Source: a virus. Taken from it: 64,000 nt of DNA. The stretch spans positions 1 through 64,000 of the IMG/VR virus record IMGVR_UViG_3300028399_000005. One strand, given 5' to 3'. The translations under genes were made by a program, and so were the position numbers. Below are positions 1 through 62,226 of this stretch, in pieces. The notes under the pieces are model-generated. The model worked only from the letters and a program-made list of their open reading frames with translations. It did no database searches and was not told where the DNA came from. The number at the start of each line of letters is the position of its first letter. Position 1 is the first letter of the stretch.

Positions 1-392
1 CCGCAGATGGGAGACTTCCTGAACAGCCCGCCAACGAACACTTTTGAGCTGTTCAGATCGGCACCGCAAACGTCGCAATTGCGCTCGTACTTGGACTTGC
101 GGTACCTCTTTATTTTGAAGTCCCCTTCTCGGACGATTTCGGGGATTTCGGCAACGGCGCGCTGATAGGCGTGTTCCCGCCTATTCTGAATCATTTCTTC
201 CTCGGTTAGGAAGACTGGGTGCACGAGTGCATCACAAGTAAAGCACTCGTACGCGCCATTGAAGATCATTTGCAAGTGCTCAAAACAAGTAGGGCAAGCG
301 GGCTTGTAGCCTCTTGCCACCATTTCTACTTGAATTTGAAATAGATTTACAGCCTGTGCAGTTTTTTCTCGAAGGTCTTTGAGGTCTGTCAT
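1..392 (-). CDS. Zn-ribbon hypothetical protein, runs off the window edge
   Basis: ATG at 392 directly after a class I promoter; manual translation MTDLKDLREK...CPTC...CFTC...CDVC. Confidence 0.7.
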   Translation of the reverse strand, partial: MTDLKDLREKTAQAVNLFQIQVEMVARGYKPACPTCFEHLQMIFNGAYECFTCDALVHPVFLTEEEMIQNRREHAYQRAVAEIPEIVREGDFKIKRYRKSKYERNCDVCGADLNSSKVFVGGLFRKSPIC

Positions 393-502
393 CAATATAC
401 TATAGGAAACAATAATATATAAAAGTTGTGGTAAAAAACATGAGATATTCATTGTTCTAACGGGAAGAATCGTATAAAAACGGCGCAACGCTGAGTGCCA
501 CA

Positions 503-1057
503 ATGAATGAACAGCAGTACTCGAAGCTATACGACCTCTTGCGAGAAGAAGGCAGGATCGAGTATTACTCGCTCGAAGCCTCGAAGAACAAGGTCGCCCT
601 CTACGAGCACTTTCTTACCGAGAACTCGATCATCCAGACGAACAAGGTGATCGAGGCGAGGAAGTGGCGGGCGAAAAAAACGATCGAAGCCGTGCGCTAC
701 TATTTCATGAAAGAGATCGCCGACCTTGCCCATCAGCGCCTCGTCAAGCACGAGAAAAAAGCACGCCTCGAAGAGCTCGAAGAGCGAGCCTTCATGTGCC
801 AGTCTGCCCTCAAAAACTTGGAAAACCTCAGCAATAGCATCGTCGTTTCTTTTCTTGATCCGCACGAAGCGTCGTGGGTGTTTTTCTACATGTCCACGCT
901 TGCGACGCTCACGCCAGAAAAAGTCCAAACGTATAATGACGTTGTGTTCTCGCTCGCAATCGAGGAAATATGGTTCTGGGCGTGGAAGTACCGCCAGATC
1001 GGGCGCCCAGCCGTGAACGCCTTCAAGGTCATGTACCGAGACAAAGCAGAGATTTAG
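503..1057 (+). CDS. hypothetical protein
   Basis: 184-aa ORF preceded by GTTCTAACG box (454) and a TATA-like element. Confidence 0.75.
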   Translation: MNEQQYSKLYDLLREEGRIEYYSLEASKNKVALYEHFLTENSIIQTNKVIEARKWRAKKTIEAVRYYFMKEIADLAHQRLVKHEKKARLEELEERAFMCQSALKNLENLSNSIVVSFLDPHEASWVFFYMSTLATLTPEKVQTYNDVVFSLAIEEIWFWAWKYRQIGRPAVNAFKVMYRDKAEI

Positions 1058-1069
1058 TTTTCTGGCACT

Positions 1070-2674
1070 TCAAAGATTAAGGTTCGAGACGAAGAGGAAG
1101 CCCTTGCTGGATTCCTTCCATCCTTCGACGGCTTTTAGGAGCGCCATCACGGTGTCCGTGTGGGGTGCGACGCTCAAATACTTGTTCTTGTCGGGGTCGT
1201 AGTACCAACCCGCAAGCTCGTCTTTGAGGATCTGCATTTCTTCCCGACCGATCTTGTTCCCGACGGCGAAACGGAGCCTGTTCGTCTCGAAGAGCGGGAG
1301 CAACGAAGGAATGCCGTGCTTGTCGTCGTGCTTCTCGATGCCCGTTTTCGACTGGATCACTGGAATGCGGTAGTCGCCGACGATTCGAGGGTCTGTTGCA
1401 AGGTCTGCCCAGAGCTCTTGGAACTGGTTCGTCTCAATCACGACTTTTCTCGCCTCGTAGCGCTTCGCCATTTCGACGAGCTTCTTGAGCTTCCACGAAT
1501 AGTTTTTGTTGTGCGTTTTCGGGACTCTGAACACTTCTCGGATGATAGCGTAGCCAGGCTCTTCGCTCGTACGCCGAGAACCGCTGTAGCGCCCGAACGT
1601 CTCGATCGCTACGTAGACAGTCCACGAGGCTTTCTCGTCCGTCCCACGGGCGAGGTCGACGCCGATGAACACAACGCCGTCCTCGGCGTGGTGCGCTGGC
1701 GTATCCATGTCGCAAGCGTCGAGCAACGAATACGGGAAGATGCTCGCCTCGTCGGAGAGAGGCATGCAGAGGTATTCCCGTGCGAAGCGGATCTCGCCTT
1801 GGTCGATGCGTTGCTCTTCGAGGTACCACTTTGGGCGGACTTTGGGCCAGAGGGCGTTCCCGTTCTCGTCGAGCGCCGAGTAGCGGGCGCCCACGTAAAC
1901 GCCTTGCTCGACTTTTTCGAGGAGTTTCGCCAAAAGGTCGTCGTGGCGCAACGGCGTCCCCACGACGGCGATCCTCGTGCCAGGCGTGAGCATCCCGACG
2001 AGGGTCTGGAAGTAGAGTTGCTCGATCAGCTTCGGGCTCACGTATTGCTTGTCGGTCAAAAGGTCGTCGCAGAGGATCAAGTGCGGGTGCTTCCCGCGGA
2101 GCCCCGAGATGAGCGCCTTGCTCTTAAGGATCGATCCGTTCGAGAGCTCCGTGATGAAAGCGCTTTCCCGCACGATCCGTATCGGAAGATTGAGGCGCCG
2201 AAGCGCTATTTTCAAGTACTTTCGGAAATTAGCGTCCCCGCTCGCGTGCCACTCGTCCGCCTGGTCTTGCGAGAACGAGACTTGCAAGATGTAGAACCCC
2301 TTGACGTCCGAGTCCTCGCTCATGTCGTCGAAGAGCGTCGCCACGGAGTGTAGCTTGTCTTTTTCGAGGTCTCGCTCGAGCCGTAGCCCCGTGAGCTTTG
2401 CGTACTGCTCTGGGAAGATCATCGCCCAGACGGCGAAGACTTGGAAGAACGTGCTTTTCCCGTGCCCTCTCGGCGCCATGATGACGGCTCGCCCTTTCTT
2501 GTGGGTCATGAACTGGTACCATTCTCTGTGAAAATCGGGGAAGTCGAAGCGCATGATGTTTTCTACGAAGTAGCGGAAGCTTCTCTTCGCAGATTCCACG
2601 TGCGCCCTAAACGACACTATGTGGCTTTGATGTGCTCTCATTTGTTGTGCTTTCGACATTTTTTCGGGTTTCAC
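1070..2674 (-). CDS. terL: terminase large subunit
   Basis: Walker A APRGHGKS, LRGKHPHLILCDD Walker B, VVGTP coupling motif, RNase H-like nuclease GVDLA and C-terminal HTDTVMAL. Confidence 0.95.
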   Translation of the reverse strand: MKPEKMSKAQQMRAHQSHIVSFRAHVESAKRSFRYFVENIMRFDFPDFHREWYQFMTHKKGRAVIMAPRGHGKSTFFQVFAVWAMIFPEQYAKLTGLRLERDLEKDKLHSVATLFDDMSEDSDVKGFYILQVSFSQDQADEWHASGDANFRKYLKIALRRLNLPIRIVRESAFITELSNGSILKSKALISGLRGKHPHLILCDDLLTDKQYVSPKLIEQLYFQTLVGMLTPGTRIAVVGTPLRHDDLLAKLLEKVEQGVYVGARYSALDENGNALWPKVRPKWYLEEQRIDQGEIRFAREYLCMPLSDEASIFPYSLLDACDMDTPAHHAEDGVVFIGVDLARGTDEKASWTVYVAIETFGRYSGSRRTSEEPGYAIIREVFRVPKTHNKNYSWKLKKLVEMAKRYEARKVVIETNQFQELWADLATDPRIVGDYRIPVIQSKTGIEKHDDKHGIPSLLPLFETNRLRFAVGNKIGREEMQILKDELAGWYYDPDKNKYLSVAPHTDTVMALLKAVEGWKESSKGFLFVSNLNL

Positions 2675-2794
2675 TTTGTCTGTGGGCGTTTTTAAGGATT
2701 CGTCTCAGTGCTTCTTTTTTCCGTAGTGAACGGAGAGAGGCTCACGATTTAGCGTGTCGCACGTAGAAGACGAGAAGCCTTGTAGTCCCCGTAG

Positions 2795-3625
2795 ATGATT
2801 TTTTAAAATTTTTTATCTTTTTTCGCGCATTTTTTCGAGAATCATGAAATCCAGTTTTTGGGTAGAAGAAGCTTCCTTCTCGGAGAATCGACGATTATTT
2901 TTTATTTTTCAGTACCCCCCGCGGTAGCCTATAGAATCAGGAATCCTACTACTAAGCCCTAAGACCCCAGAATTTTCAAAAAAAGAACCAAAAAACCTAC
3001 TATTTTTTAGATTCTTTTTTTTCAATATTTCGCGTTATTTTTCACATTATTTTCAATATCTTACTTTGCTCGGAGGCTTTCCCTTTTTTCATTTTTTACT
3101 ATTTTCCTATTATTTTTTTATTATTTTCAATACTATATACGATAGAATACTAAATCCATAACCTTTAAATATTAGCCCAATATATAATTACTAATATAAT
3201 ATATCATATATTATAATATATGATTCTCAGCTATTCCCGAAATCGGCGCCCCCTATAATAATATAATATCTAGTACAGCAGGCGGAAAACGACGTTGTCT
3301 ATCGAGGGGGGTACTGAAAAAAATAAAAAAATATAGTGATTTTTTAGAATTTAAAAGATTCAGACCGCCAGAAGCAATTCTAAAAAATGGAAAAAAAGTG
3401 AAAAATAACGCGAAAAATATGAAAAAAATACTTCAAGGGGCGACGGCGCAAAAATCGAACGTCGTGGGAGATTCCCTCTCTTCATCAGCGTCTATCGCAC
3501 CCCCCATTGAAAAATAAAAAAATAATCATCAATTTTTCAAAATTTAATACCTAAGGCGAATGTAAGACCATTTTAGAAATTGAAAAGAATATGAAAAATA
3601 ACGCGAAAAATATGAAAAAAATGTT
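2795..3625. repeat. AT-rich iteron-containing region A (inverted copy of 50893-51696); candidate origin or packaging region
   Basis: No ORF; repeated boxes TTTCGCGTTATTTTTCA and GATTATTTTTTATTTTTCAGTACCCCC in both orientations around an AT-rich centre. Confidence 0.85.
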
Positions 3626-3770
3626 TCACGGTGTGTAGCTCGATTTTGCGGGCACGGCTTCCCCGTTAGAACGGGGCGATTCTCTTATATTTTACGTCTC
3701 TAAGGCTTACACGAGCGGTTTCTCAACGGGCGTTCTCGCCTGTTCGGGCAAGCTCAAGAGATGATGAAGA

Positions 3771-7123: not shown

Positions 7124-7493
7124 GAACGGCAAGGTCTCGAAGTGGTTCGGCGTCCCGTTCTTGTCGCTCGAGGTCGAGAAAATGACCTCGAAGGACGTGA
7201 TCGACCTTTGGGTCGAGAACGGGAAGAAGCTCCCGAAACTCCAATACGTCCGCTCGTTCGTCATCCTTCAAGAAAGTCCCGACAAGTTCTCGTGCTGGCG
7301 GTGCGGGGGAAGGAACGCTCTCTGCAAGGTCTGGCTCACGAACGGCGTCGTCGGAGTCCTCTGCTGGGAGTGCGTGCGGGAACAAGCCTACTTCAACGCC
7401 CCGCTCGCACAAATTCGTAGGATCCGAAAGATAACCAAATCAGCGGGTGGTAAGAGTGCCAAAAAACGCAAACGGCGAAAAGGTCATGTTTAA
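7116..7493 (+). CDS. Zn-binding hypothetical protein
   Basis: CWRC...CWEC, basic tail, overlapping operon gene. Confidence 0.65.
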   Translation: MSRNGKVSKWFGVPFLSLEVEKMTSKDVIDLWVENGKKLPKLQYVRSFVILQESPDKFSCWRCGGRNALCKVWLTNGVVGVLCWECVREQAYFNAPLAQIRRIRKITKSAGGKSAKKRKRRKGHV

Positions 7494-7611
7494 GGTCTCG
7501 AAGCACATGCTCGAGAAAATCGACGAGCTCATAGAGAAAAACGGCTACAAGAACCGCGCCGACGTGGTTCGCGAAGCCGTCAAGAACCTAATCGAGAAAG
7601 AGCTCGAATAA
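7456..7611 (+). CDS. ribbon-helix-helix (CopG/NikR-like) DNA-binding protein
   Basis: Not in the ORF track (51 aa); manual translation ...VMFKVSKHMLEKIDELIEKNGYKNRADVVREAVKNLIEKELE fits the RHH pattern. Confidence 0.75.
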   Translation: MPKNANGEKVMFKVSKHMLEKIDELIEKNGYKNRADVVREAVKNLIEKELE

Positions 7612-7684: not shown

Positions 7685-8713
7685 GTGATGATACAGCAAT
7701 CGCAAGAACAACAGCCCTTGAACGAAAAATACCGCCCAAAGACGCTCGACGAAGTGATCGGCCAAGACGAGGTCGTCGAAGCGATCAAGAACGTGCTTCA
7801 AGCGGGCTACACTTCGCACTTTCTCTTCGTCGGCGCCCCTGGGTGCGGAAAAACAACGATCGCCCAGATCGTGGCGAACATGATCCTCGAAAAACGACAA
7901 TCAGACAGCGTGGTCGACGAGGGAGCGATCTTCATGACGAACGCCTCGGACGATCGGGGGATAGACTACGTGCGGGACGTGATCCGCCACAAGATCGAGC
8001 AAGAACGGTTCTTCGTGATCATCCTCGACGAAGCGGACGCCCTCACCTACCAGGCGCAAGACGCTCTTCGCGGGCTCATGGAACTCGCTGGCAAGCGAGG
8101 GAAGCCCTTTATCCTCACGGGGAACTACGAGAACCGCTTCTCGCCCCCGATCCTCAGTAGGTGCATGGTCTTCAAGTTCCGCAAGCTCTCTTGGAAAGAA
8201 ATCGGTTTCCGCTTGCTCGAAATCGCCGAGAGCGAGGGGATCGAGGTTCCGCAAACCCCCGAGTACGCCCAGTTCTTCAAATTCATCTCCGAGCGGGCGG
8301 ACGGAGACCTTCGGGAAGCAATAGACTACTTGCAAAGCGCCATCTACGTCGACGAGAACGGCGAGAAGCGAATCAACACGAGCATCGCCGTCCAACAACA
8401 AAAACCCAAAGAAATGCTCAAGCAGTTCTTTGCCCTCGTCCGCCGAGGAGAGACCGAGGGGATCGTCAGCGACGTTCGCCACATCGAAGAGCTCCTTCAA
8501 GATGGTAAGCTCCTGCCCGACGACATCGTGAAAACCGCCTACGAGTGGGTGATCGAAAGCAAGCTCTCCGATGAAGAGATTCGCAAACATATCATAGCGA
8601 TCGCCGACACCGAGGCGCGTCTCAAGCTCGGGACGCAACCAATCATCCAGTTCGCCTACCTCATTTCCAGAATCTACCAGAACGCCCTCGAAGCAAACGG
8701 TGGTGCTCGCTGA
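7685..8713 (+). CDS. rfcS: replication factor C small subunit (clamp loader)
   Basis: EKYRPKTL, GAPGCGKTT, NASDDRGIDYVR, ILDEAD, SRC, GDLR motifs. Confidence 0.93.
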   Translation: MMIQQSQEQQPLNEKYRPKTLDEVIGQDEVVEAIKNVLQAGYTSHFLFVGAPGCGKTTIAQIVANMILEKRQSDSVVDEGAIFMTNASDDRGIDYVRDVIRHKIEQERFFVIILDEADALTYQAQDALRGLMELAGKRGKPFILTGNYENRFSPPILSRCMVFKFRKLSWKEIGFRLLEIAESEGIEVPQTPEYAQFFKFISERADGDLREAIDYLQSAIYVDENGEKRINTSIAVQQQKPKEMLKQFFALVRRGETEGIVSDVRHIEELLQDGKLLPDDIVKTAYEWVIESKLSDEEIRKHIIAIADTEARLKLGTQPIIQFAYLISRIYQNALEANGGAR

Positions 8714-9618
8714 TGGAAAACATCCCTCAAGACTCGCTCTTGATCTCGTTCTCGCAATTCGCTCTTCTCGAACAGTGCGAGCGAAAATGGTTCTACAAGT
8801 ACATTCGCCTCATTCCCGAGCCGATCGAGGACTCGAAATACCTCGTCCTCGGGAAAGCACTGCACGGCGCTTTCGAACGCACCCTCGCCTTCCTCGCTGG
8901 GCAAGTCGCCACGACGAACGACGCGAAGAAAGCCTTCCTTGCAAGTCTCGAACGAACGCTCGAGGAAATCGAAGACGTGGACTCCGCCACGAGGAGCTTT
9001 GTCGAAGAACGTATTTTCACCGTCGTTCCGACGCTGACGTCGCTCGTGGCGAAGTACTCGCACGTGGCTCAAAGACAAGGGATCGAGAAATACGTCCAGT
9101 ACGAAGTGCCACGCGGGCTCTACGAGAAAAGCGCCCTCGACAGCATGCTCGTCCCATTGTTCGACGACGAGCGCAACGAGGTCATCGACTGGATTCGCCC
9201 AGAACGCGTCATTTTCCGCGGATACGTCGATCTTTTCACGTCAAAGGGCGACGTGATCGACTGGAAAACAGGGCGCCCCTCTCCGCAGAAAATCCAAAAA
9301 TACTCGAAACAAATCCAGACATACGCCTACGTGCTCCGAGAGCTCGGCGAAACCGTGCGGAGCGGGAAAGTCGTGTTCATCGAGAACGGGAGCGAAATCG
9401 ACGTCCCCGTCGACGAGGGCGTCTCTCGTCAAATCGCCGAGAAAGTGTTCCGAAGTCTCATCGACGCCTACGAGCGCCAAGTGCAACCACGCCTCTTCAA
9501 GAAGACAAAGAACGAGTTCGCCTGCAAGTGGTGCGGGTACGCATGGGTCTGTCAAGCCCAAACTTCAAAAACCCTTATCCCGCTTATTAGGAATGAAGCA
9601 CTCGGTGGTCTGTTATGA
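8713..9618 (+). CDS. Cas4/RecB-like PD-(D/E)xK nuclease
   Basis: N-terminal SFSQ...C, GYVD...DWKTG, QxxxY, C-terminal CKWC...C (Fe-S type). Confidence 0.85.
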   Translation: MENIPQDSLLISFSQFALLEQCERKWFYKYIRLIPEPIEDSKYLVLGKALHGAFERTLAFLAGQVATTNDAKKAFLASLERTLEEIEDVDSATRSFVEERIFTVVPTLTSLVAKYSHVAQRQGIEKYVQYEVPRGLYEKSALDSMLVPLFDDERNEVIDWIRPERVIFRGYVDLFTSKGDVIDWKTGRPSPQKIQKYSKQIQTYAYVLRELGETVRSGKVVFIENGSEIDVPVDEGVSRQIAEKVFRSLIDAYERQVQPRLFKKTKNEFACKWCGYAWVCQAQTSKTLIPLIRNEALGGLL

Positions 9619-11025: not shown

Positions 11026-11859
11026 ATGCAAGGAGAAGAAGACAATCTACAGCAAGCAAAAGATTCTCGTGCGCAACAATCGGACGAAATCCTCGAGCTC
11101 GCCCTCGACCAGATCCGTGGCGAGGACGGTGAGGACGAAAAAGAAATTGTGCTCTCGGGCGACGAGATCATCGAGAAGCTCTTCGACATCCAACAGACCA
11201 CGACCGACCAGTACATCATGGTCGTGCGGGAGCTCAAGCAAACCGTCGCCCTCATACGGGACTTCATCGAGAAAGCCGACACGAGCAACGAACGCCTGTT
11301 CGAGGTCATAAGCACCATGAAGGACGAGCTCAACACGAACGTCGTCAGAATCCTCGACTCGGTCGTGAACATGCTCTCGGAGCTCACGGTCTTGTCGGGG
11401 AGCATCTCGCAAAAAGTCGACGAGCTCGCTGGCACAAAAGACCTCGGCGCCCCCGACGAGGGCGACCCGCTATGGACGGTCGGGCAAAAAATGATCATCG
11501 ACGCCCTCGCAAAGATCCACTCGATCCTCAGCGGAAGGCCTGGGAGCGAGTTCGTCGAAGCGCTTAACGACTACGCGATCAAGACAGTCGGGAGCGGGCG
11601 GAAAGTCGACGAGCACTTCAACCGCTGGCAACAAGAGCGATTCTTTGCCGAGTTCGTGCTCGACGTTGCGAAGCGCTACAACTACCCCGACCAAGTCGTC
11701 CCGATCTTGCTCGCTTTCGTCGTCGCTTTCATCGCCTTGCGGACGAGGACACCGCTCTTCGCTTCGACGGGGCTTTCCGTGGCGATCGAGAAGTACATCG
11801 CTTCGAACGTTCGAATCGATAAAAAAGAAGAAGGGGAAAAGGCGGGAGAGGATCAGTAG
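11026..11859 (+). CDS. hypothetical helical protein with C-terminal hydrophobic segment
   Basis: 277-aa ORF with genome-typical codon use. Confidence 0.75.
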   Translation: MQGEEDNLQQAKDSRAQQSDEILELALDQIRGEDGEDEKEIVLSGDEIIEKLFDIQQTTTDQYIMVVRELKQTVALIRDFIEKADTSNERLFEVISTMKDELNTNVVRILDSVVNMLSELTVLSGSISQKVDELAGTKDLGAPDEGDPLWTVGQKMIIDALAKIHSILSGRPGSEFVEALNDYAIKTVGSGRKVDEHFNRWQQERFFAEFVLDVAKRYNYPDQVVPILLAFVVAFIALRTRTPLFASTGLSVAIEKYIASNVRIDKKEEGEKAGEDQ

Positions 11860-12044
11860 CGATTGTTGCACCACTCGCACGGGGCGTCCCCTATGCAGAG
11901 GCAACAATCAAGGCGCTCTTGGGAGCGCCAATATAACCGCCTGCACGAGTGCCCGCAAGCGTAGCATCTTTTGACCCGTCTGCGGTACCGCAACGGCTCA
12001 GAAAAGATATAGCTATACGATCCAGATAGCAAATCGGTCGTCAT
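11853..12044 (-). CDS. small Cys-rich protein (class I promoter)
   Basis: Leaderless ATG after class I promoter; CYAC, CCLC, CEWC. Confidence 0.55.
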   Translation of the reverse strand: MTTDLLSGSYSYIFSEPLRYRRRVKRCYACGHSCRRLYWRSQERLDCCLCIGDAPCEWCNNRY

Positions 12045-12117
12045 CAAGATATTATAGTATATTAGAATATTTAATTTTTGTGGTAAAAAATGTGGCGGGG
12101 AAGCGAGGCTGGGGGTG

Positions 12118-12390
12118 TTAGTGAGAGACGACTTCAACATATACCATGTCCCCGACCCCAGCGGGGGTTACGGGGAGCCATTCGATTATTGGCATGTTAA
12201 ATACTTGCAGGGCTTCTGCAAGCTTTTTCTTCGCCTCGTCGATTCTGTCGGGGCTGACCATGACCCCGACTTGGAGCCTCTCCGAATTAGGATCGGCTAA
12301 ATCTGTCCGTATGAGCACCGCATGAGCTGGTGCTCGGATGTATCGCATGAGAAATTTTTCAACACGTTGATAGGCGTATTCGTTTGTCAT
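12118..12390 (-). CDS. hypothetical protein (class I promoter)
   Basis: Leaderless ATG after class I promoter. Confidence 0.7.
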   Translation of the reverse strand: MTNEYAYQRVEKFLMRYIRAPAHAVLIRTDLADPNSERLQVGVMVSPDRIDEAKKKLAEALQVFNMPIIEWLPVTPAGVGDMVYVEVVSH

Positions 12391-12515
12391 CAATATAATA
12401 TACGTAAGGGTATTATATAAAGGTTGTGGTAAAGGTAAGAAGCGAAACGAAAATATGGACAGGCTTGCTAAAAAAGAAAAAAAGAAGAAGGAAGGCGGAG
12501 AAGGCGCTGGGCGCT

Positions 12516-12836
12516 TTACGCGACCCTTTCGAGAAGACCGAGGTCGTACCCGATCTCCTCGAGCTCCTCGACGGAGTTTATGACAACCCCTTCGGGGAGC
12601 CTTCTCTTGAGCTTGAAGACCAGGGCTTTGTCCCCAGTCTCCATGGCTATTTGGAGACGATTCGCTGGGACTTCGATGCCCAGCAACTTCGTGAGGGCTT
12701 CCGCCGTGGCAACATGCCCGACGGCGCTCTCAAACCCGCCCGCAAGGAGCTCACGGGCGTCTTCCACGCTTATGGGGGAGAACTTGTATTCTCCCCAAGC
12801 GGTGATGATCGGGGCGTTCAACACGTAGATCGTCAT
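12516..12836 (-). CDS. acrIII-1: DUF1874 / STIV B116-like protein, AcrIII-1 family cA4 ring nuclease (anti-CRISPR)
   Basis: IYVLNA, FESAVGHVATA (catalytic GH), ANR, GDKALVFKLKRRLPEG are family hallmarks; 106 aa. Confidence 0.85.
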   Translation of the reverse strand: MTIYVLNAPIITAWGEYKFSPISVEDARELLAGGFESAVGHVATAEALTKLLGIEVPANRLQIAMETGDKALVFKLKRRLPEGVVINSVEELEEIGYDLGLLERVA

Positions 12837-12937
12837 CAATACATATTATGTGATGATATTATATAAAGGTTGTGGTGCACGAATAGTAGTTATAACGGCG
12901 GGAATAGTTCAAAAACGAATCGGAGCAATCAAAGCAT

Positions 12938-14674: not shown

Positions 14675-15079
14675 CTAAGAAGACGCCATGTCGATGACGC
14701 TCGACAAGACTTCGAGGTTGCATCGAACGGCGCGCTCGAGCCTCCAATGAAGAGGCTCGGAGTTGAGGATGTCGAGAAGCGATGCATAGATGATGCGTAG
14801 GCTCCTCGCGGAGAGGTTGTTGCGCCATTCGTCCATGCCTTCGACGTTGTAAAGAATGAAGTCGAAGGCGCTGTACATCCCCCCGTACATCATTCTCCCG
14901 TATGCGAGCATTTCGATTACTCGCACTGGGAGAAGTGCAAAGACTGCTGGGGGAATGTATAGGTAGATTCTGATTACTCTTTTTCCTCTCTCGTAAGCCA
15001 CGACGAACCCGATGTCGTGGCGATCTCCCGCCTCGCGGGAGAGATGATGATCGGGTAGATGCCTATCACAATATCTCAT
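14675..15079 (-). CDS. hypothetical protein (class I promoter)
   Basis: Class I promoter at ~15085-15126. Confidence 0.7.
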   Translation of the reverse strand: MRYCDRHLPDHHLSREAGDRHDIGFVVAYERGKRVIRIYLYIPPAVFALLPVRVIEMLAYGRMMYGGMYSAFDFILYNVEGMDEWRNNLSARSLRIIYASLLDILNSEPLHWRLERAVRCNLEVLSSVIDMASS

Positions 15080-15271
15080 ACTTCCTCAATATATTATAGG
15101 AAGTGGTAATATATAAAGGTTGTGATTTAGGTAAGAATAGTTGCGACGTCCGATTATCCGCGATCACGGCTTCGACGGGACGCCACGAGCGCCCTTAAAG
15201 TCGAAAAATTCGCCGAAAAACTGCGCAAAGTATATAAATGAACCCCCGCGCAAAAACAAAGTGAGACGCTT

Positions 15272-46648: not shown

Positions 46649-47073
46649 TCTTCATCATCCTTTGCTTTTCGTTGCTTTTCCTTCCGCTTCTCGCGTAGCA
46701 ACTGCGAGTATCTTCGAGCGAGCATCACGCAGAGCTGGGACTCCGTGCGGACGGTGTCGAGGAACTCGTCGGCGTATTTCTCCGCCTCGAGGATGAGCTC
46801 TGGCTCATCATGGAGCGCTTGGATGCTCAGCTGGTTGCAGAGCTTGTTCACGAACTTTGCAACGGTCGGCTTGCGGGAAGAGTTCTTGATTCTGTGCTCG
46901 AAAATGTCCGTGGCGATCTTGGACGTGCTCATCTGGTGCCAGTTCACTTGGTAGTAGACCCTTCCGAGAAGGGCGGAGATGAGCTCGTACACTCGCTTTT
47001 TTCTTGGCGAGACCCACGAGAGGTCTTGGCCTGGCAATATTTCTTCGAGGCTAAAAGTAGATTTCTGCGCCAT
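46645..47073 (-). CDS. cas11: type IV-B small subunit (Cas11-like)
   Basis: Helical 142 aa between csf1 and csf2; FVNKLCNQLSI. Confidence 0.65.
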   Translation of the reverse strand: MAQKSTFSLEEILPGQDLSWVSPRKKRVYELISALLGRVYYQVNWHQMSTSKIATDIFEHRIKNSSRKPTVAKFVNKLCNQLSIQALHDEPELILEAEKYADEFLDTVRTESQLCVMLARRYSQLLREKRKEKQRKAKDDEE

Positions 47074-47824
47074 AGACTTCGCCTTCTTCTTCTTTCTTTC
47101 GTTTTTTCGATTGCTTCTCGGGCTTCTTAGTATCTTTGCGGAGCGTCTTCATGGTCGTGAGCTTCTTCGGCGTATCCGTGCACTTGACGACGAGCTCCCA
47201 GGCGGGGTTCCCCGCGAACTTCTTCGCCTCGTAGTAGTGCTGTATCGCCCCGACCTCGACGAGCGTCTCGATGATCGAGCTGTTGGTCTCGAGCGTTTCG
47301 AGGCGCTTCTTCCCGAAAAATGGCATGAGCGCGTCGACGAGTCCCGTGATTTTCTCGTAGCTTCGTGGCGTGAACCGTGCGACGTCTTCTTCGAAGATCA
47401 CGACGAATCTGTTGATTGACCCCTCGTTCGACGGCGTGTTGATGGCGAACGGGTTCACGATCCATCCGTGCTTCTTGAAGCTCTTCGTTACGAAGATTGC
47501 GAAGGGCTCGTTTCGAGCGAGCGCTTCGGTGAGGACGTCCCGAAACTCGTTGAACTTGAACGCCTTGAACCTTGCGGGGGAAACAACCCAGTTCGTTTTT
47601 CGGACTGTCGCTTCTTTGAGCGCCCCCGCACAAAAAACGCAGAGCCCGTGGCCCGCTTTCAAGTGCTGGAATCCCGTGAAATTGCCCGAGACTACTCTCT
47701 TGATGTCCACGAGCTCGTCGACGGTCTCCATGCAAATATAGCACCTACCGTGGTGCTTTTCGCCCGAGATTGGCTCGATCATTTTTGCTTGTGCGAGCAG
47801 GCGTGGTATTGTGAGAATCATCAA
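47051..47824 (-). CDS. csf1: type IV large subunit (Cas8-like)
   Basis: N-terminal CYIC...LCVFC Zn finger, PFAIF...KKHGW; first gene of the operon. Confidence 0.8.
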   Translation of the reverse strand: MMILTIPRLLAQAKMIEPISGEKHHGRCYICMETVDELVDIKRVVSGNFTGFQHLKAGHGLCVFCAGALKEATVRKTNWVVSPARFKAFKFNEFRDVLTEALARNEPFAIFVTKSFKKHGWIVNPFAINTPSNEGSINRFVVIFEEDVARFTPRSYEKITGLVDALMPFFGKKRLETLETNSSIIETLVEVGAIQHYYEAKKFAGNPAWELVVKCTDTPKKLTTMKTLRKDTKKPEKQSKKRKKEEEGEVYGAEIYF

Positions 47825-48158: not shown

Positions 48159-48290
48159 TCAGAGCTCGAGGTTGTCGAAGAATTCGCTAAATAAGACCGC
48201 TAAGAGCTCATCGTCGAACTCTGACAGCGCCTTCGCTTCGTAAAGCTTTGAAGAATTGTCGTCTTTTGAGAAGTTGTCGTTCTCGCTCAT
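48159..48290 (-). CDS. 43-aa acidic peptide (leader cassette 1)
   Basis: ATG after class I promoter and structured leader. Confidence 0.6.
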   Translation of the reverse strand: MSENDNFSKDDNSSKLYEAKALSEFDDELLAVLFSEFFDNLEL

Positions 48291-48344
48291 GGTACATCCC
48301 TGTCGTCGGGCGGGTCTCCTTCCCCCTTGCGGGGGTAACCCACC
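48291..48344 (-). promoter_or_regulatory. conserved structured 5' leader, copy 1
   Basis: GGTGGGT-TA-CCCCC-GCAA-GGGGG-AAGGAG-ACCCGCC-CGACGAC. Confidence 0.75.
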
Positions 48345-48550
48345 AATATAATATAGGAAGGAGAAATATAAAAAGGTTGTGGTAAAGGTAATCAATATGT
48401 TTGTATTTTTCTGATAAAAAATAAGAGAAACTTGGCAGGCGGTTTATTACAAAAAAATGACAAAAAATAGCGCGACGGAAGCGGTAGCAAAGAAAGAAAA
48501 GAAGGGGCGAAGCAAAGCTCCGCAAAGTTAGGAAGGCAAAGTTGAAGGGC

Positions 48551-48958
48551 TTATAAGTCCAGTTTTCTACCGTATGCTTCGAGGAGCGCCGTAAGCTCCA
48601 AATCTATTAGGCCTCTCTCATTTGAGAGGAAGCCCAATAGATTCAAGGTATGGCGGGCGTCTAAGAAGTCGTCCACCTTCGATCGGAAGGCGATCCGAAG
48701 GAAGGTATAGACGATGTGGTAGGCGAGGTCTCGGGCGGTCATGCCCTTCGTCTCATAGACCGCTTGTGCGAGCTCGAAGGCTCTCACAATGGTCTCGTTC
48801 ATCTCGGCTTCGAACTCTTCTGGATTCATGCGTTGCGATAGCGCAGACGCAATGAAGTCCTGGAAGAGCCCGTCTATTTCGTTCAAAGCGTGCTCGTCTA
48901 TCGGGGCGTCGCCCGATAATGGACGGACACGCTTAGCGTCGAACGTTTCGTCTGCCAT
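48551..48958 (-). CDS. acidic helical protein (leader cassette 2)
   Basis: ATG after class I promoter and structured leader. Confidence 0.75.
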   Translation of the reverse strand: MADETFDAKRVRPLSGDAPIDEHALNEIDGLFQDFIASALSQRMNPEEFEAEMNETIVRAFELAQAVYETKGMTARDLAYHIVYTFLRIAFRSKVDDFLDARHTLNLLGFLSNERGLIDLELTALLEAYGRKLDL

Positions 48959-49013
48959 AGTCCATCTCTCCGTCGTCGGGTGGTGTTCCTTCCCCGCATG
49001 GGGGTGCACCACC
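48959..49013 (-). promoter_or_regulatory. conserved structured 5' leader, copy 2
   Basis: GGTGGTG-CA-CCCC-CATGC-GGGG-AAGGAA-CACCACC-CGACGAC. Confidence 0.75.
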
Positions 49014-49094
49014 AATATAATATAGGAAGTGGTAATATATAAACTTTGTGGGAAATTGGTAGATAATTGCACTCTAAAAGTGTTGCGAGGAGCA

Positions 49095-49336: not shown

Positions 49337-49738
49337 TCAAAGGTTGTTATAAACTATCTCGAGCGCTCTTCGGATTGTGAGTGTCTTCGGTGGGCGCTTG
49401 TAAGGGGCGTAGCCGACGTCCCATACGAGCGTCCCTCGAATGCTAACCCGTGCACTCCCCTCGAAGAGGAGCTCGTCGTCTGGACTGTACGCCTTGACAA
49501 CGATGTCGTGCACGGTAACGCTGTATTCCGTGCCAGGCCATGGTCTGCCCTTGTAGCGCTCGACTTCTACAAGGGCGATCTCGAGCCGTACCGAGCCCTT
49601 GTTCGAGTCCACGAAAAGCGTGAGCTCGTCAAGGGCGTCGTAGTCGTCGCGTAATACGAGGGCTACCCCCTCGAAGCCGTTCCCAGCCACGAAGGAGTAG
49701 CCCTTCAACTTAGAGTTATAGGCTAACTTCATTCTCAT
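49337..49738 (-). CDS. beta-rich hypothetical protein (leader cassette 3)
   Basis: ATG after class I promoter and structured leader. Confidence 0.75.
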   Translation of the reverse strand: MRMKLAYNSKLKGYSFVAGNGFEGVALVLRDDYDALDELTLFVDSNKGSVRLEIALVEVERYKGRPWPGTEYSVTVHDIVVKAYSPDDELLFEGSARVSIRGTLVWDVGYAPYKRPPKTLTIRRALEIVYNNL

Positions 49739-49790
49739 AGTATCACCGTCGCCGAGCGAGTCTCCTTCCCCCATAAGGGGGTAACCCGCT
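49739..49790 (-). promoter_or_regulatory. conserved structured 5' leader, copy 3
   Basis: AGCGGGT-TA-CCCCC-TTAT-GGGGG-AAGGAG-ACTCGCT-CGGCGAC. Confidence 0.75.
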
Positions 49791-49894
49791 AATATAATAT
49801 ACGCAACGGTAATATATAAGTTTTGTGGGAATTTGGTTAGAAGATGCGTAAAAAATATGAAAAAAATGTGCAAAAATATGAAGCATAAATCATG

Positions 49895-50251
49895 CTAAGA
49901 ATGATGACGAACGCCTTGTTCGCGAAGGTCGTCGATGACCTCGGCAAGCATCTCTTGAGCCTCGTCGATGGTCGCAAGCATCCCTTCGAGGACGGCGAAC
50001 TCGTCGAGCTCGGGGTTCCCAGAAAAGACGCGAACCCAAGGAACGACGGGCATCATGACGAAATCGTCGTAGCGCAGAACTGCGATGACTTTCTCAGTCG
50101 TCTTGTCCTTGACCGTAGCGGTCTTCGCAGTGCGTTCGTACTCTATAATTACCCTGTCAAATTCCTCAACAGCATCGAGCGCTTGGTATATCCTATCTAT
50201 AACGACATTGCTAATGTCGAACGACGATTCTATATAGATCTGTTTCATCAT
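49895..50251 (-). CDS. acidic hypothetical protein (class I-like promoter)
   Basis: Leaderless start after a degenerate class I promoter. Confidence 0.7.
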   Translation of the reverse strand: MMKQIYIESSFDISNVVIDRIYQALDAVEEFDRVIIEYERTAKTATVKDKTTEKVIAVLRYDDFVMMPVVPWVRVFSGNPELDEFAVLEGMLATIDEAQEMLAEVIDDLREQGVRHHS

Positions 50252-50354
50252 GACTAATAATACCAGCCCAGAATACAAAAACTTTGTGGAATTTAAAACC
50301 AGCTATAAGAGAACACCACAAAATCTAAATATTTCAACTTCGCATAGTATATTG

Positions 50355-50873
50355 ATGAAGACCAGATTACTATCCAAGGGCGGATGGCGTATCCACGTCG
50401 TCGCCATGAAAATACTTGAAGAATTCATGCCACGCACGATCCCTTGCCCCGCGTGCGGACAAGGGGAAGCAACGCTCGACCCAGACTTCTCGGGCGAACG
50501 CCCTACCGTAGCGTACGCCCACGAGGGCCACAAGACCACAACTGACGTTTTCGACGACGGTCTCAAACAAAAATTCGAGACCGCCCGCGAGCTGTTCCGC
50601 GAGCTACGGCTCGCCTCGCTGGCGGACGTGTTCGAGCTCACCGAAAAACAAACCCGAGCACTCGAAAAACTCGTCAAAGAAGAGTTTCTCCGACATGTAG
50701 CCGACGGGGGCTTTCGAGGGTTCTCCGAGAGGAACGGCCCGATCGACCGCCACTATCTCAGAGCGTTGCGCAAGAAAGGGCTCTTGCGCCACGAAAACGG
50801 TAAATACTTGACTAAGGACTGGGTCGCCACGTACGTGGTCGTCTTCGGAGTGGAATCCCCGATCGGGCTCTGA
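50355..50873 (+). CDS. Zn-ribbon plus winged-helix hypothetical protein (class I promoter)
   Basis: CPAC; LRALRKKGLLRHENGKY. Confidence 0.7.
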   Translation: MKTRLLSKGGWRIHVVAMKILEEFMPRTIPCPACGQGEATLDPDFSGERPTVAYAHEGHKTTTDVFDDGLKQKFETARELFRELRLASLADVFELTEKQTRALEKLVKEEFLRHVADGGFRGFSERNGPIDRHYLRALRKKGLLRHENGKYLTKDWVATYVVVFGVESPIGL

Positions 50874-50892
50874 CGCGTCGACAGGCGGTGTA

Positions 50893-51696
50893 CTATTTTT
50901 TTCATATTTTTCGCGTTATTTTTCATATTCTTTTCATTTTTTAATTCCTATCGAGAAGGTCTGAATCTATTAAATTCTAAAGAATCGATGATTATTTTTT
51001 ATTTTTCAATGGGGGGTGCGATAGGCATAATTATGTTCCTCGAGAATCTACGAAGCGCCGAAACTCGGAAAAACAGCAACAAGAGATTTTTTTGACTTTT
51101 TCGCGTTATTTTTCACATTCTTTTCAATTTCTAAAATTGTTTCTTACGCTTTGAACCCTTTAAATTTTGGATTTCCCATGATTATTTTTTATTTTTCAGT
51201 ACCCCCTGCGATAGGCATGCCCCATTGGTGCCCCCTATAATAATATAATATAGGGTACAGGCAGTGGCGGTTTCGGGAATAGTTTGGAATCATATACTTT
51301 AGTATATGATATATAATTAAGAATAAGAATCTGGGTTGATTCTAACCTATCGTATATAGTATTGAAAATAATAAAAAAATAATAAGAAAATAGTAAAAAA
51401 TGAAAAATTAGAAGCCCTTGTAGGCATTTAGAAAACTGAAAATAATGTGAAAAATAACGCGAAATATTGAAAAAAATAAACTTGGAATATAGGGTATGAT
51501 TTTTGCTTTTTTCTTAGTTTTTTAGGGTTTCAGGCTTTGGTATTAGGAATCAAGAATCTATACGCGATCGCGGGGGGTACTGAAAAATAAAAAATAATCG
51601 TCGATTCTTTGGAGTCATGAGTTGAGCGTTGTGTTTATTGCGATTCATGATTCTGAAAAAAATGCGCGAAAAAAGGTAAAAAATTTTAAAAAATCG
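50893..51696. repeat. AT-rich iteron-containing region B (inverted copy of 2795-3625)
   Basis: Same boxes in mirror order, e.g. 51572 GGGGGGTACTGAAAAATAAAAAATAATCGTCGATTCT is the reverse complement of 2885-2920. Confidence 0.85.
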
Positions 51697-52523: not shown

Positions 52524-53676
52524 ATGGGAATCCGATTCATTCCAAAAAAAGAATGTGATGTGGGTTTAGCTCGAAATGGAGTATTGGACTTCGGTAAAAA
52601 GAAACTTCCTACTCCCTTTCTTTGGTTTGGCTTATCAAATCGAGAATCTGTAGTTTTTCAAAAAACAGTATTTGAAAGTGCGATGATCGAAGGAATCATG
52701 GCAAATGCATACGACCTTATGTTTCAAGATAGGACTGGCTCTCGAACTGAAATGGTCAAAGAATTGTCTCGCTCAGGGCTCGTAGTAAAATGTGATAGCG
52801 GGGGTTACCAAATACTTAAGAGAGGGAAAAAAATCGATCGATCCAAAGTTCTGAGGTTTCAAGAAGATTTGAATTGCGATTTGATGGTTCAACTCGATTA
52901 TCCCATATTAGGTTCTGATCCTCGAGAACTTAAGAAAAAACATATTGATAAAACCCTCAATAATCTGGAATATGCTTTGAAAACAGCTAATCGTCCAGAA
53001 AGAATTGTTCCAACTATTCATGGACACGATTCCGAGTTATTGCGTTATCAAGCAAAAAAAAATTACAGATCTCCTTGGCGAAACCCCGCCTATTATTAGT
53101 GTTGGTTCTTTGGTTCCTCTACTTTTTAATTCAAAAGGAGCAAAAGGGGTTGGAGGTAAAGCAAAAGCTTTGGAAGTTATAAGGATTGTTCGAAAACTTT
53201 TTCCAAAAACAATGATTCATGCTCTCGGTATTGGGGGCGCTCTTACATATCTCGCTATATATTTTGGCGCAGATAGTTTCGATAACAACGGTTGGATACA
53301 AAAAACTGGTTTCGGCGTAATTCAAGTTCCTGGATCATCGGATCGGTTTCTTGGAACCCCGCCGAATGGCAGAAAGAAAATTGATACTGACGAAATAGCC
53401 TATCATAGATGGCTTGAATGTGTGTGCCCAGCTTGTAGGAGTTCTTCTAATAGAAGTGTATTCATTGGACGAGATGAGAGCGCAAGGCTAAATCGAGGAA
53501 TACATAACGCCTATACATTTCAAGCGGAAATTTGGAGAGTAAGGAGATATATCCATGAAGGCCAATATATCAACTTTATAAAAGAGAGAATGAAAAATTC
53601 TATATATTTGCGGATTTTACAAGAGGAATTAAATCGTAACGATCATGAAAAAATATTTAACGATGTGTGGTTTTAG
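52524..53676 (+). pseudogene. tRNA-guanine transglycosylase (TGT/DpdA) family gene split by a frameshift in an A9 run
   Basis: TP, CDSGGYQ, QLDYP in ORF1; HALG, DSFD, CxCxxC...HN in ORF2; removing one A at 53054-53062 joins them. Confidence 0.8.
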
Positions 53677-60765: not shown

Positions 60766-61344
60766 TTAGTAAACCGTGTGGACAAGCCAGCGCCTGTATG
60801 GTTTCAAGAACTCCTTGAGGTCGTCGGGCAAGAGCTCTTTCTCCGTGAACGAGACGCTCGCATCGGCGAGCTTCAACGAGTCCGCCCCGCCCGTGTGCTG
60901 GTGCGCCCGAAGCCTTTCGTAGAGGCGCACCACGATTTCTATGATCACGTTTTTAACGGCGTCGGGGACGGTTTCCCCGCCCCACGTGTAGACGATTTCG
61001 ACGTTCTGATTGCCGTCCTTGATTCTGCCATCCTTGAACTTTATCTTGCCCGTTTGCTTGTACACGTAATAGTCCGTGCCTTCCGTGAGCGTTTTCGTCC
61101 CGACCTTGATGTTCGTAACGCTCGAGATCGGGGCGTAGCGGGTGTAGTAGTAAACCCTGGAAGAATCGCCGTCCCATTTCTCGGTCTCCGTCGTGAGCGA
61201 GTTCCACTTGCGCCGACAAAACGTGTCCACGGCGCCCTCGACCCGCACGATCATGTCGTTTACGGCAGTCTGGTCGTTCGAATCGAGCGTTACGCCGAGC
61301 CTTGTCTGGACTTCTATTACTGTAACATATCTTGGGGTCGCCAT
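60766..61344 (-). CDS. head-tail adaptor (gp6/gp15-like)
   Basis: YVTVIEV...VDTFCRR, YTWG...VPDAVK, LPDDLKEFLKPYRR. Confidence 0.85.
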   Translation of the reverse strand: MATPRYVTVIEVQTRLGVTLDSNDQTAVNDMIVRVEGAVDTFCRRKWNSLTTETEKWDGDSSRVYYYTRYAPISSVTNIKVGTKTLTEGTDYYVYKQTGKIKFKDGRIKDGNQNVEIVYTWGGETVPDAVKNVIIEIVVRLYERLRAHQHTGGADSLKLADASVSFTEKELLPDDLKEFLKPYRRWLVHTVY

Positions 61345-61441
61345 GCTATGTAGTATAGCGTCGCGAGAATTTATAGTTTTATGCTTTTAAATGAGCGACT
61401 ACAAAATGGAAGAAAAAGAAAGGAGAGGAAACGAGGAAACC

Positions 61442-61798
61442 TTAGCTTGCGACGAGGTCTCGGAGCGGGATTCTGTAAACACTGAACCCGCCATGTCTCT
61501 TCCACGGGTTGAAGTAATACCCGTGGCTCTCGGGCGACTCACGCCAGGGCGGGAGATAGACCTCGTACATGTTTCGCTTTAGGTTCTCGGGTAGGTGCGG
61601 GAAGGGTTTCCGTGAGGAAATAACCCACATTCCGCGCTTCTTGTCATGGAGCACCTTCCCTCGGATTCCGAGGGAACGATTAAGCTCTCGAAGCTTATTC
61701 AGATATATTTCAACGGAAGGGGGCATGTCCTTCCGAATCCACAGCGGACTCTTTTTAGAGCCCAGATTTAGATAGACGTCATACATTACTGGGTGCAT
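61442..61798 (-). CDS. basic hypothetical protein (class I promoter)
   Basis: Leaderless start after a class I-like promoter. Confidence 0.65.
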   Translation of the reverse strand: MHPVMYDVYLNLGSKKSPLWIRKDMPPSVEIYLNKLRELNRSLGIRGKVLHDKKRGMWVISSRKPFPHLPENLKRNMYEVYLPPWRESPESHGYYFNPWKRHGGFSVYRIPLRDLVAS

Positions 61799-61911
61799 CA
61801 AAATACTATACGCACCACTAATATATAAGAATTGTGCTTCTTCTACGATTGTGCGTTATAACGGTGGGGATGGTTTTTATTGAGTGTATTGCAAACGAAA
61901 AACGAGGAAGT

Positions 61912-62148
61912 GATGTTTTAATGCAGAGAGGCAGAATCTTGTGTCCAAAGCACTTGAAGGTTTTCCAGGCGGAGAAGAACGGTGTAACCGTCCGCTATGG
62001 CTATTATGCGGGGTATTTCCACGCCGACATCATGCGTTGCCCCGTCGAGGACTGCGACATGCGGGTCATCACGGGGCTCGGCGAAGAAATCTTCGACCCA
62101 GACTTCGAGCCCGAGATAAGCCCCACAAAACCTTATCTAAACGATTGA
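61912..62148 (+). CDS. small Zn-binding protein
   Basis: CPKH...CPVEDC; class II box at 61854. Confidence 0.6.
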   Translation, partial: DVLMQRGRILCPKHLKVFQAEKNGVTVRYGYYAGYFHADIMRCPVEDCDMRVITGLGEEIFDPDFEPEISPTKPYLND

Positions 62149-62226
62149 TCCTCGCCCGTTTTTTTTTTGCATGCGTTTATCACAACCTTTATATATTTCT
62201 CCTTCCTATATTATATTAGAGGAAGT

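Follow-up and report, generated by a model that had tools for sequence, protein, structure and literature searches.

The class I cassette and its genes

IMG/VR record IMGVR_UViG_3300028399_000005 is a virus genome of 83,942 bp, the first 64,000 nucleotides of which (bases 1-64000) are the stretch of DNA analyzed here and are referred to as the window. A conserved promoter-like cassette, termed class I, recurs at 19 sites in the window, and every class I unit consists of a single gene with its own cassette. One of these genes encodes a homolog of the AcrIII-1 ring nuclease, a known anti-CRISPR (Acr) family. In our judgment the virus is archaeal and tailed, and one of its transcription classes probably has the cassette as core promoter; this class would be a co-regulated set of accessory genes, most likely immediate-early.

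A sequence-only reading of this DNA had earlier listed about 19 copies of the motif, and all 19 were recovered, 1-3 nt from the positions that it gave and on the same strands. When the 18-mer CCACAACCTTTATATATT was used as a probe, 14 matches with up to three mismatches were found, against 0.01 expected from 100 dinucleotide shuffles (maximum 1); allowing four mismatches gave 20 matches, namely all of the listed sites plus one at 3156+ that has no open reading frame (ORF) behind it. A position matrix of 42 columns, built from 16 sites and scanned over the whole 83,942-bp genome, returned 18 strong sites of 28.6-66.0 bits (17 in the window, together with 83858- outside it), and the best score from 20 mononucleotide shuffles scanned with the same matrix was 8.2 bits. 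Two of the strong sites, 41791- (28.6 bits) and 83858- (55.4 bits), had no part in training. The degenerate sites 20051- and 50289-, with four mismatches and a spacing of -1, were missed by the matrix, and weak look-alikes were seen at 3156+ (16.6 bits), 57446+ (14.4 bits) and, before an SNF2 helicase gene, 79118- (19.3 bits). An independent repeat search also identified the cassette as the largest direct-repeat family of the genome (D1, 12 copies).

The class I set comprises 20 products, of which the 19 in the window belong to the following units (extent and strand, site, matrix score where there is one, and gene).

393-434 (-), site 431-: 62.8 bits, ATG at +39; ORF 3-392, Zn-ribbon-like, across the record junction
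11856-12086 (-), site 12083- (12045-12086): 43.1 bits, ATG at +39; 63-aa Cys-rich ORF 11856-12044, with a T-run after the stop
12121-12432 (-), site 12429- (12391-12432): 60.9 bits; 90-aa orphan ORF 12121-12390, no family match
12519-12878 (-), site 12875- (12837-12878): 41.2 bits; AcrIII-1/DUF1874 ring nuclease homolog 12519-12836, 106 aa
14678-15128 (-), site 15125- (15087-15128): 60.1 bits, GAGGAAGT leader, ATG at +46; 134-aa orphan ORF 14678-15079
19675-20054 (-), site 20051-: degenerate, 4 mismatches, ATG at +38; 113-aa orphan ORF 19675-20013
20517-21113 (-), site 21110-: 51.7 bits; 185-aa acidic orphan ORF 20517-21071, isoelectric point (pI) 4.8
26655-27650 (-), site 27647-: exact consensus, 66.0 bits; 318-aa protein of an uncharacterized family, 26655-27608
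28387-28899 (+), site 28390+: 62.3 bits; 157-aa ORF 28429-28899, matching only PADLOC WH_III-A (E 0.0028)
33078-34436 (-), site 34433-: peripheral, 33.7 bits, 4 mismatches; Rnl1-like RNA ligase 33078-34394, 439 aa
36683-37028 (+), site 36686+: 62.0 bits, GAGGAAAC leader, ATG at +46; 99-aa acidic orphan ORF 36732-37028
41191-41794 (-), site 41791-: 28.6 bits, spacing +1, outside the training set; 187-aa basic ORF 41191-41751, pI 10.6
48162-48385 (-), site 48382-: 62.3 bits, ~50-nt stem-loop leader 48291-48344; 43-aa acidic ORF
48554-49054 (-), site 49051-: 60.6 bits, stem-loop leader 48959-49013; ~135-aa ORF 48554-48958
49340-49831 (-), site 49828-: 54.0 bits, stem-loop leader 49739-49790; ~133-aa ORF 49340-49738
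49898-50292 (-), site 50289-: degenerate, 4 mismatches, ATG at +38; 118-aa acidic ORF 49898-50251
50313-50870 (+), site 50316+: 46.6 bits; 172-aa ORF 50355-50870 with a CPxC motif and, by eye, a C-terminal helix-turn-helix (HTH)-like stretch
61445-61840 (-), site 61837-: 40.8 bits; 118-aa basic ORF, pI 10.1
62177-62823 (+), site 62180+: 61.3 bits, GAGGAAGT leader; 199-aa very acidic ORF, pI 4.2

The earlier description of these units as single small genes lodged between core genes proved correct. For the whole set of 20, 12% of the genome (10,080/83,942 bases) is under the cassette. A run of at least five T residues lies within 54 nt past the stop codon in 17 of the 20 units (of the three units that lack one, one lies against the end of the record), and in the tandem clusters (12083-, 12429- and 12875-; 48382- to 50289-) each T-run directly adjoins the cassette of the following gene.

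Anatomy of the cassette

With the first C as the anchor of the alignment, a conserved block is seen from a TTA at -3 through position 39, and the information content is ~51 bits over -12 to +39 of the cassette. The block is made up, in order, of CCACAACC, whose CACAA is nearly invariant, TTTATATATT, six variable bases and (T)TCCTATATTATATTG. If the A of the ATG is instead counted as +1, CCACAACC lies at -39 to -32, where the TFB-recognition element (BRE) is expected, and is A/C-rich rather than purine-rich at this putative BRE position. A TATA box, TTTATATA, follows at -31 to -24 and keeps the same distance from the ATG or, in leadered units, from the base that opens the 5' stem; it is a perfect 8-bp consensus, with its center ~27 nt from the inferred start. 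After TT and six variable nucleotides comes an A/T-rich proximal element, (T)TCCTATATTATATTG at -16 to -1, that is conserved far beyond the usual, with TATATTATATT at -12 to -2, then G or A at position 39 (-1), and T before it (17/17 aligned sites). The ATG occurs at +38 to +40 of the cassette in 13 of the 19 window sites (+39 in ten, +38 or +40 in three); three others show GAGGAA and then an ATG at +46/47, and in three more (48382-, 49051- and 49828-) the cassette is followed by a structured leader of ~50 nt.

Archaeal promoters have been described with an upstream TATA box and an A/T-rich element at about -10, in company with leaderless mRNAs (PMC5316973), and it is this geometry that the ~27-nt distance of the TATA center and the A/T-rich -10 element of the cassette reproduce. 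The fixed offset of the ATG likewise points to leaderless mRNAs, and transcription would be expected to begin at the purine at position 39/40. Moreover, the 7-bp outer stem of the three leadered units begins exactly at position 39 and thus serves as an independent marker of the start point.

Core genes, a second promoter class and transcript ends

The occurrence of the cassette before structural and other core genes was also checked, and strong sites precede none of the 29 annotated replication, structural, modification or Cas genes (0/29). Many core operons for replication, modification and Cas functions are preceded by a second kind of promoter, termed class II, in which the palindrome CGTTATAACG (or CGTTCTAACG or CGTTAGAACG) is followed after ~11 nt by a TTTTTA(A/T) box and, after a further 22-28 nt, by the start. 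A loose version of this pattern has 78 matches in all, 26 of them intergenic candidates. Examples from the roughly 20 class II sites of the window are as follows.

Class II sites: 5029+, 7639+, 19669-, 22789+/22796-, 39296-, 40284-, 47879-, 51832+, 53751+, 56289+, 57800+

By its sequence, class II looks activator- or regulator-dependent, and the virion operons have ordinary TATA-like boxes without the flank of either class. A ribbon-helix-helix protein is encoded at 7447-7611.

With accessory genes under the cassette and core genes under other promoters, a co-regulated temporal class is the most likely interpretation. It is conceivable that this class is a middle or late one, switched on by a virus activator or an alternative TFB that binds CACAA and the proximal element, in which case its genes would not be expressed at the onset of infection and would provide no first-line counter-defense. 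The conservation outside the BRE and TATA box, far above what a generic proximal element needs, would suit such an arrangement, yet the TATA box of the cassette is a perfect consensus, and it is class II, with its weak T-box and palindrome, that has the usual look of activator dependence. In the literature, the AcrIII-1 gene of SIRV2 is described as a middle/late gene (bioRxiv 10.1101/2023.01.10.523387), whereas regulons of the same architecture are reported to be early (PMC11065993). Even counting the weak site before the SNF2 helicase gene in its favor, we hold a middle or late class to be improbable and retain an early accessory class as the better account.

As for the ends of transcripts, CCCGCC (or CYCSCC) with a T-run within 14 nt is found after stop codons at 30 sites, compared with 7.3 in shuffles (for example, 12099-, 14658-, 19637-, 20487-, 26634-, 28915+ and 33053-), and is likely to be a hairpin-free terminator signal. 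Hairpin terminators show no clear enrichment (31 vs. 21.5 +/- 4.7).

Conservation in relatives

Relatives of this virus are scarce in the collections. A megablast of 24 kb against a phage collection gave no match, the portal protein has no relative in IMG/VR, and for the major capsid protein only two homologs were found, at 98% and 37%. A 17-nt half motif returned only single-copy chance matches in IMG/VR, at 113 loci or more. A few loci are nevertheless informative. The homolog P0004, 82% identical to the 318-aa protein, carries an N-terminal extension, SQPLYITTSYIILM, that is an in-frame translation of the cassette, and the only differences in its cassette are at C1, giving TCACAACC, a variant shared with the present genome, and within the variable spacer. 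Homologs of the same protein at 39-47% are encoded at five distinct metagenome loci, of which two are preceded by class-I-like DNA (10.5 and 16.6 bits, where random windows reach 1.2 at most) and two by nothing of the kind; at the other one, a TATA, 11 nt, TATATTTATATT and an ATG can be made out by eye. In an 85% homolog of the 172-aa protein the proximal element is more diverged. Finally, a vent-metagenome run (X2) contains a relative of ~90% nucleotide identity as short contigs over 11.5-31.4 kb, with the AcrIII-1 region included. Retention of the cassette in the 82% homolog, together with cassette-like DNA at the distant loci, argues for selection and not for recent copying.

These data bear on another explanation, in which the T-run and cassette form a mobile terminator-promoter unit, a hot spot of recombination through which accessory ORFs come and go, in the manner of the PeSL elements of T4-like phages. 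The near identity of the cassettes would then reflect recent recombinational spread, and the genes would lack a common functional theme. PeSLs are indeed composite terminator/early-promoter motifs that mediate shuffling, as described in PMC4122927 and PMC2839356, and the abutting of T-runs and cassettes in the tandem clusters is what such a unit would look like. It would also accommodate products that are mutually unrelated and mostly orphans: there is no paralogy among the 20 class I products, although their promoters are nearly identical, and 17 of the 20 are without a significant family match in Pfam, PHROGs, NCBIfam or PADLOC. A foreign base composition of class I genes was considered and rejected, however, GC and GC3 being equal to those of other genes (p = 0.50 and 0.58, respectively), which gives no sign of recent import, and the persistence of the cassette in the 82% relative, with similar DNA before distant homologs, speaks for selection on function. 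A mobile cassette is thus unlikely as the full explanation, and it is compatible with, not exclusive of, a promoter class for co-regulated accessory genes.

Predicted products of the class I genes

The best-defined product is the 106-aa protein encoded at 12519-12836 (-). It matches PF08960 at 98.3 bits (cut-off 26; E 3.1e-28), PADLOC Csx16 at 5.5e-35 and AFV3-109 (PDB 2j6b) at E 5.7e-25, and the GH pair that AFV3-109 and STIV B116 have in common is matched in the alignment by a GH at residues 40-41. In the description of this family, the absolutely conserved catalytic histidine is H47 of SIRV1 gp29 (bioRxiv 10.1101/778746). On these homologies the protein is an AcrIII-1 ring nuclease homolog with the predicted catalytic histidine, and its closest relatives include Fusobacterium phages. 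The claim that AcrIII-1 and about 18 other single genes have a promoter-type cassette in common is borne out by the PF08960 match and the matrix sites.

The inclusion of an RNA ligase in the same set, also proposed from the sequence, stands less firmly. The Rnl1-like protein encoded at 33078-34394 has a KFDG motif and matches phrog_562 (E 9.1e-27), with PF09511 at 26.8 bits, below the cut-off of 28.3, and no sequence match in PDB. Its gene does possess a cassette, which at 33.7 bits is the second weakest accepted site, only 41791- (28.6) being lower. No kinase or phosphatase partner was found: PF08645, for an end-healing partner of the polynucleotide kinase (PNK) type, has no match in the genome (other healing enzymes were not searched for), and PF13671 matches only the P-loops of RFC-like genes, below cut-off. 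The ligase may thus be a peripheral member of the class with a possible role in RNA repair.

The 318-aa protein, which follows the exact consensus cassette, belongs to a widespread family with 57 cluster representatives at E<=1e-3 and the invariant residues H36, C71, E73, A75, N77, G92, E94 and C151. Its AlphaFold2 (AF2) model has a pLDDT of 76.7 (the N-terminal conserved domain was not folded separately) and gave no Foldseek match to PDB or BFVD at E<=0.001; a wide VIA-align search returned only generic three-helix matches over residues 250-318, with Z of 7.7 or less. The family alignment found no confirmed relative among IMG/VR and genome contigs. For the 172-aa product, a candidate regulator with only one homolog (85%), the AF2 model reached a pLDDT of 49.9 and was unusable, so that structure prediction, suggested earlier as a check on the orphans and carried out for these two products, gave no fold match for the one and no usable model for the other. 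In the ESM Atlas, the 421-aa product resembles only unnamed clusters of tailed-virus proteins (score 0.96), and the 199-aa product has nothing above 0.80 and no informative neighbor. PDB sequence searches with the 187-, 157-, 185- and 421-aa products and with the 318-aa family profile gave nothing significant. A (CTACTTT)n tandem heptamer at genome positions 82203-82400 sits downstream of the 421-aa class I gene, in a 0.5-kb gap upstream of a 58-aa ORF at 81872-82048 (-).

Many of the orphan class I products had further been described as small and acidic. Acidity was rejected as a class trait, a pI below 5.2 being found for 8 of the 20 class I products and for 23 of the 91 others (Fisher p = 0.27). 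Cys-pair motifs, a basic pI or weak winged-helix matches are seen in five class I products. The Zn-ribbon and HTH candidates are encoded at 3-392, 11856-12044, 28429-28899, 41191-41751 and 50355-50870, and such Zn-ribbon- or HTH-like features, recognized by eye, would fit regulators as well as inhibitors. The Zn-ribbon Pfam matches of ORF 3-392 are weak.

Hairpin leaders and a type IV-B module

In the three leadered units (leaders at 48291-48344, 48959-49013 and 49739-49790, all on the minus strand), a stem-loop of ~36 nt begins at position 39. The outer 7-bp stems are GGTGGGT/ACCCGCC at 48382-, GGTGGTG/CACCACC at 49051- and AGCGGGT/ACTCGCT at 49828-, and four of the seven pairs are changed on both sides with pairing kept, according to a pair list drawn from comparison of the folds (when the three sequences were aligned automatically, one copy was out of register and no covariation appeared). 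The leader at 48382- folds at -23.5 kcal/mol. Each leader also holds an inner CCCCC/GGGGG hairpin and an unpaired AAGGAG, and AAGGAGAC follows the stem-loop. Only these three copies exist in the genome; the hairpin has no Rfam match, and its pattern had 0 matches in IMG/VR.

The three hairpin-led units (48.2-49.8 kb) adjoin a complete type IV-B CRISPR-Cas effector operon, which occupies positions 43836-47821 (-) of the window under a class II promoter and also includes a 111-aa ORF. Its other genes are as follows.

47054-47821 (-): csf1 (1e-20)
46648-47073 (-): cas11 (9.2e-24)
45399-46286 (-): csf2/cas7 (4e-65)
44600-45391 (-): csf3/cas5 (1.4e-43)
43836-44600 (-): CysH-like PAPS-reductase protein

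A Cas4-like nuclease is encoded at 8713-9615, and a search of the genome for CRISPR arrays or mini-arrays found none. The pairing of type IV-B genes with Cas4 has been described in Fuxivirus, a 32-kb virus of Bathyarchaeia with a mini-array (PMC10848311), which is the only published archaeal-virus precedent for type IV-B that we found. It is tempting to suggest that the viral Csf complex has the promoter-proximal hairpin RNAs as its natural ligands or scaffolds, or that these RNAs act as decoys aimed at Cas proteins of the host, and this we put forward as a very unlikely, if attractive, idea. If it were true, type IV-B would gain a defined RNA partner and a counter-defense role in an archaeal virus.

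The virus, its genome ends and its host lineage

The two ends of the record share an exact overlap of 12 nt (window 1-12 and the last 12 nt), which implies a circular or circularly permuted genome and hence a complete record, not one that is 77% complete as had been estimated. With the overlap closed, ORF 3-392 becomes ~148 aa long and reads on to a stop just before cassette 83858-, so that the class I genes of 431- and 83858- stand in tandem.

The virion genes encode TerL, a portal fused to MuF, a prohead protease, a gp10-like protein, a connector, a tail tube and a hub. Replication genes are of archaeal type and include an RFC small subunit (5.4e-61), an RFC-large-like ATPase, a Hef/XPF nuclease and PolB, together with a primase with a PriL-like end and ThyX. 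Judged by this gene content, the virus is archaeal and tailed, with an HK97-type module. Its DNA comes from a vent metagenome.

A tRNA gene at window 27732-27849 (+) scores 42.2 bits in Rfam, encodes its CCA and has an insertion of ~44 nt in the anticodon-arm region; ARAGORN makes no call for it. It is preceded by a TTTTTATAAA box of its own, and a G3-U70 pair, recognized by eye, hints at an alanine tRNA. In another sequencing run (X1), a contig matches the ends of this tRNA, with 20 other letters replacing 64.

Two AT-rich non-coding regions of ~0.85 kb each, at 2797-3636 and 50881-51695 of the window, are mutually inverted repeats (79-94% complementary) with internal units of ~190 bp, and they bracket 47 kb. 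The degenerate class-I-like site 3156+ falls inside one of them. Such regions are candidates for replication origins or non-coding RNA loci. Additionally, a TGT/DpdA-like transglycosylase is split across the overlapping frames 52524-53096 and 53005-53673 (+), which match positions 3-188 and 211-354 of the Pfam TGT profile. A frameshift, a programmed shift or an error in assembly could each account for the split, and the gene, together with several DNA methylases, suggests DNA modification.

A model of class I expression

In the model that we favor, host TBP, TFB and RNA polymerase would initiate at the ATG or one base before it, yielding leaderless mRNAs, and each transcript would comprise a single gene and end at an oligo-T run, often after CCCGCC. 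SIRV2 provides the analogy by which class I would be expressed immediate-early and devoted to host takeover. The flanks specific to the class, CACAA and the proximal element, could contribute to promoter strength, to later shut-off by a virus-encoded DNA-binding protein, or to both. The contents of the class appear to be mixed, consisting of the AcrIII-1 ring nuclease, a possible RNA-repair ligase, putative Zn-ribbon/HTH regulators and orphans.

A number of observations weigh against this model. The matrix scores are partly circular, since the matrix was itself trained on the 16 best sites. A 38-nt cassette pattern in IUPAC code had 0 matches in each of the viral, metagenome and genome collections, and apart from one close relative there are few loci from which its conservation can be judged. 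The proximal element shows no clear dyad symmetry, only direct TATATT repeats, and the search for a regulator of the cassette yielded just a weak winged-HTH match (PADLOC, E 0.0028) and the unusable model of the 172-aa protein. In the public sequencing runs, virus DNA was found in two DNA runs only (hydrothermal vent metagenome), and no RNA run was listed. As for the identity of the genes, AcrIII-1 is reported to occur seldom under such motifs (prevalence 0.13; PMC11065993), making it a weaker bait than had been assumed, and a late-expressed AcrIII-1 homolog of SIRV2 is reported to have no Acr action in infection (bioRxiv 10.1101/2023.01.10.523387). Lastly, a consensus scan in the style of sigma-70 also reads the cassette as TTTATA-18-TATATT, with 9 of 12 matches, so that geometry alone is no proof of an archaeal promoter.

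This last point raises the question of whether the cassette is a bacterial sigma-70-type promoter (-35 TTTATA, an 18-nt spacer and -10 TATATT) of a phage with leaderless mRNAs. The scan lists four cassettes with the same geometry, and there are the Fusobacterium phages among the closest AcrIII-1 relatives; set against these are a poor -35 match and the invariant CACAA, for which sigma-70 recognition has no role. It is mainly the gene content that makes the possibility unlikely, beginning with the archaeal-type replication set. The insertion-bearing tRNA that ARAGORN leaves uncalled, transcript ends marked by T-runs with no clear enrichment of hairpin terminators, and the type IV-B and Cas4 pairing described in a Bathyarchaeia virus (PMC10848311) point in the same direction, and a bacterial promoter is accordingly extremely improbable.

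The proposal that the class forms an anti-defense regulon is thus retained in part. It gains from the presence of AcrIII-1 and from the logic of the published regulatory-sequence method, and it loses from the absence of acidity enrichment, from the several Zn-ribbon/HTH-like products, from the membership of the 318-aa product in a widespread family and from the resemblance of the 421-aa product to tailed-virus clusters. Only one of the 20 products belongs to a known Acr family, and anti-defense roles for the orphans are best regarded as candidate functions. What results is a list of about 17 uncharacterized genes for which co-expression with an anti-CRISPR ring nuclease is likely. We know of no counter-defense genes in tailed archaeal viruses of hydrothermal vents. 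The list is useful as a set of candidates, if unsurprising in principle. Moreover, the two-class promoter layout provides a testable map of the viral transcription program.

Comparison with known systems

The closest parallel is found in viruses of the Sulfolobales. A regulatory sequence is common to 11 of the 13 early genes of SIRV2, among them two Acr genes and Aca8, and the method based on such sequences predicted 354 candidate anti-defense genes, with false positives considered possible (PMC11065993, Bhoobalan-Chitty et al. 2024). The step from a shared promoter to candidate anti-defense genes has therefore already been published. The regulons described there resemble class I in having a virus-specific conserved sequence around a predicted strong BRE and TATA promoter, in controlling single small genes that are mutually unrelated and mostly unannotated, with a known Acr family among them, in including some DNA-binding products and in leaving core genes to other promoters. 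They differ in belonging to rudi-, lipothrix-, bicauda- or fuselloviruses, whereas the present virus is tailed, and in lying at genome termini, whereas core blocks separate the units of the present virus. Furthermore, the conserved flank here runs mainly from the TATA box to the start, no Aca8 homolog was recognized, and AcrIII-1 stands under the motif, which the published survey reports only rarely (0.13). The placement of AcrIII-1 under an accessory-class promoter is, in the account of those authors, the condition for Acr function, and early expression of this type is, according to published work, what the enzyme requires to serve as an anti-CRISPR in an actual infection. What is new here is the host lineage, the TATA-to-start conservation, the two-class layout and the three hairpin-led units, and promoter-guided discovery is thereby extended beyond Sulfolobales viruses.

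Halovirus HF2 provides a second parallel, as a tailed archaeal virus with two classes of AT-rich intergenic repeats (class I of 58 bp and class II of 29 bp) that carry promoters (PMC8707807). Its repeats precede long transcripts over most of the genome, in contrast to the monocistronic units of the present virus, the sequences are unrelated, and the account given of HF2 makes no link to anti-defense. The PeSLs of T4-like phages (PMC4122927; PMC2839356) are similar in that modules of a terminator and an early promoter flank variable ORFs among core blocks, but they are built from sigma-70 promoters and hairpin terminators. Finally, the Aca-controlled acr promoters of bacteriophages (PMC13551039) share with the model proposed for class I the theme of strong early counter-defense expression that needs later shut-off; there, acr and aca form an operon whose promoter has inverted repeats bound by the HTH protein Aca, whereas the cassette described here has no clear inverted repeat and heads a single gene in place of an operon.

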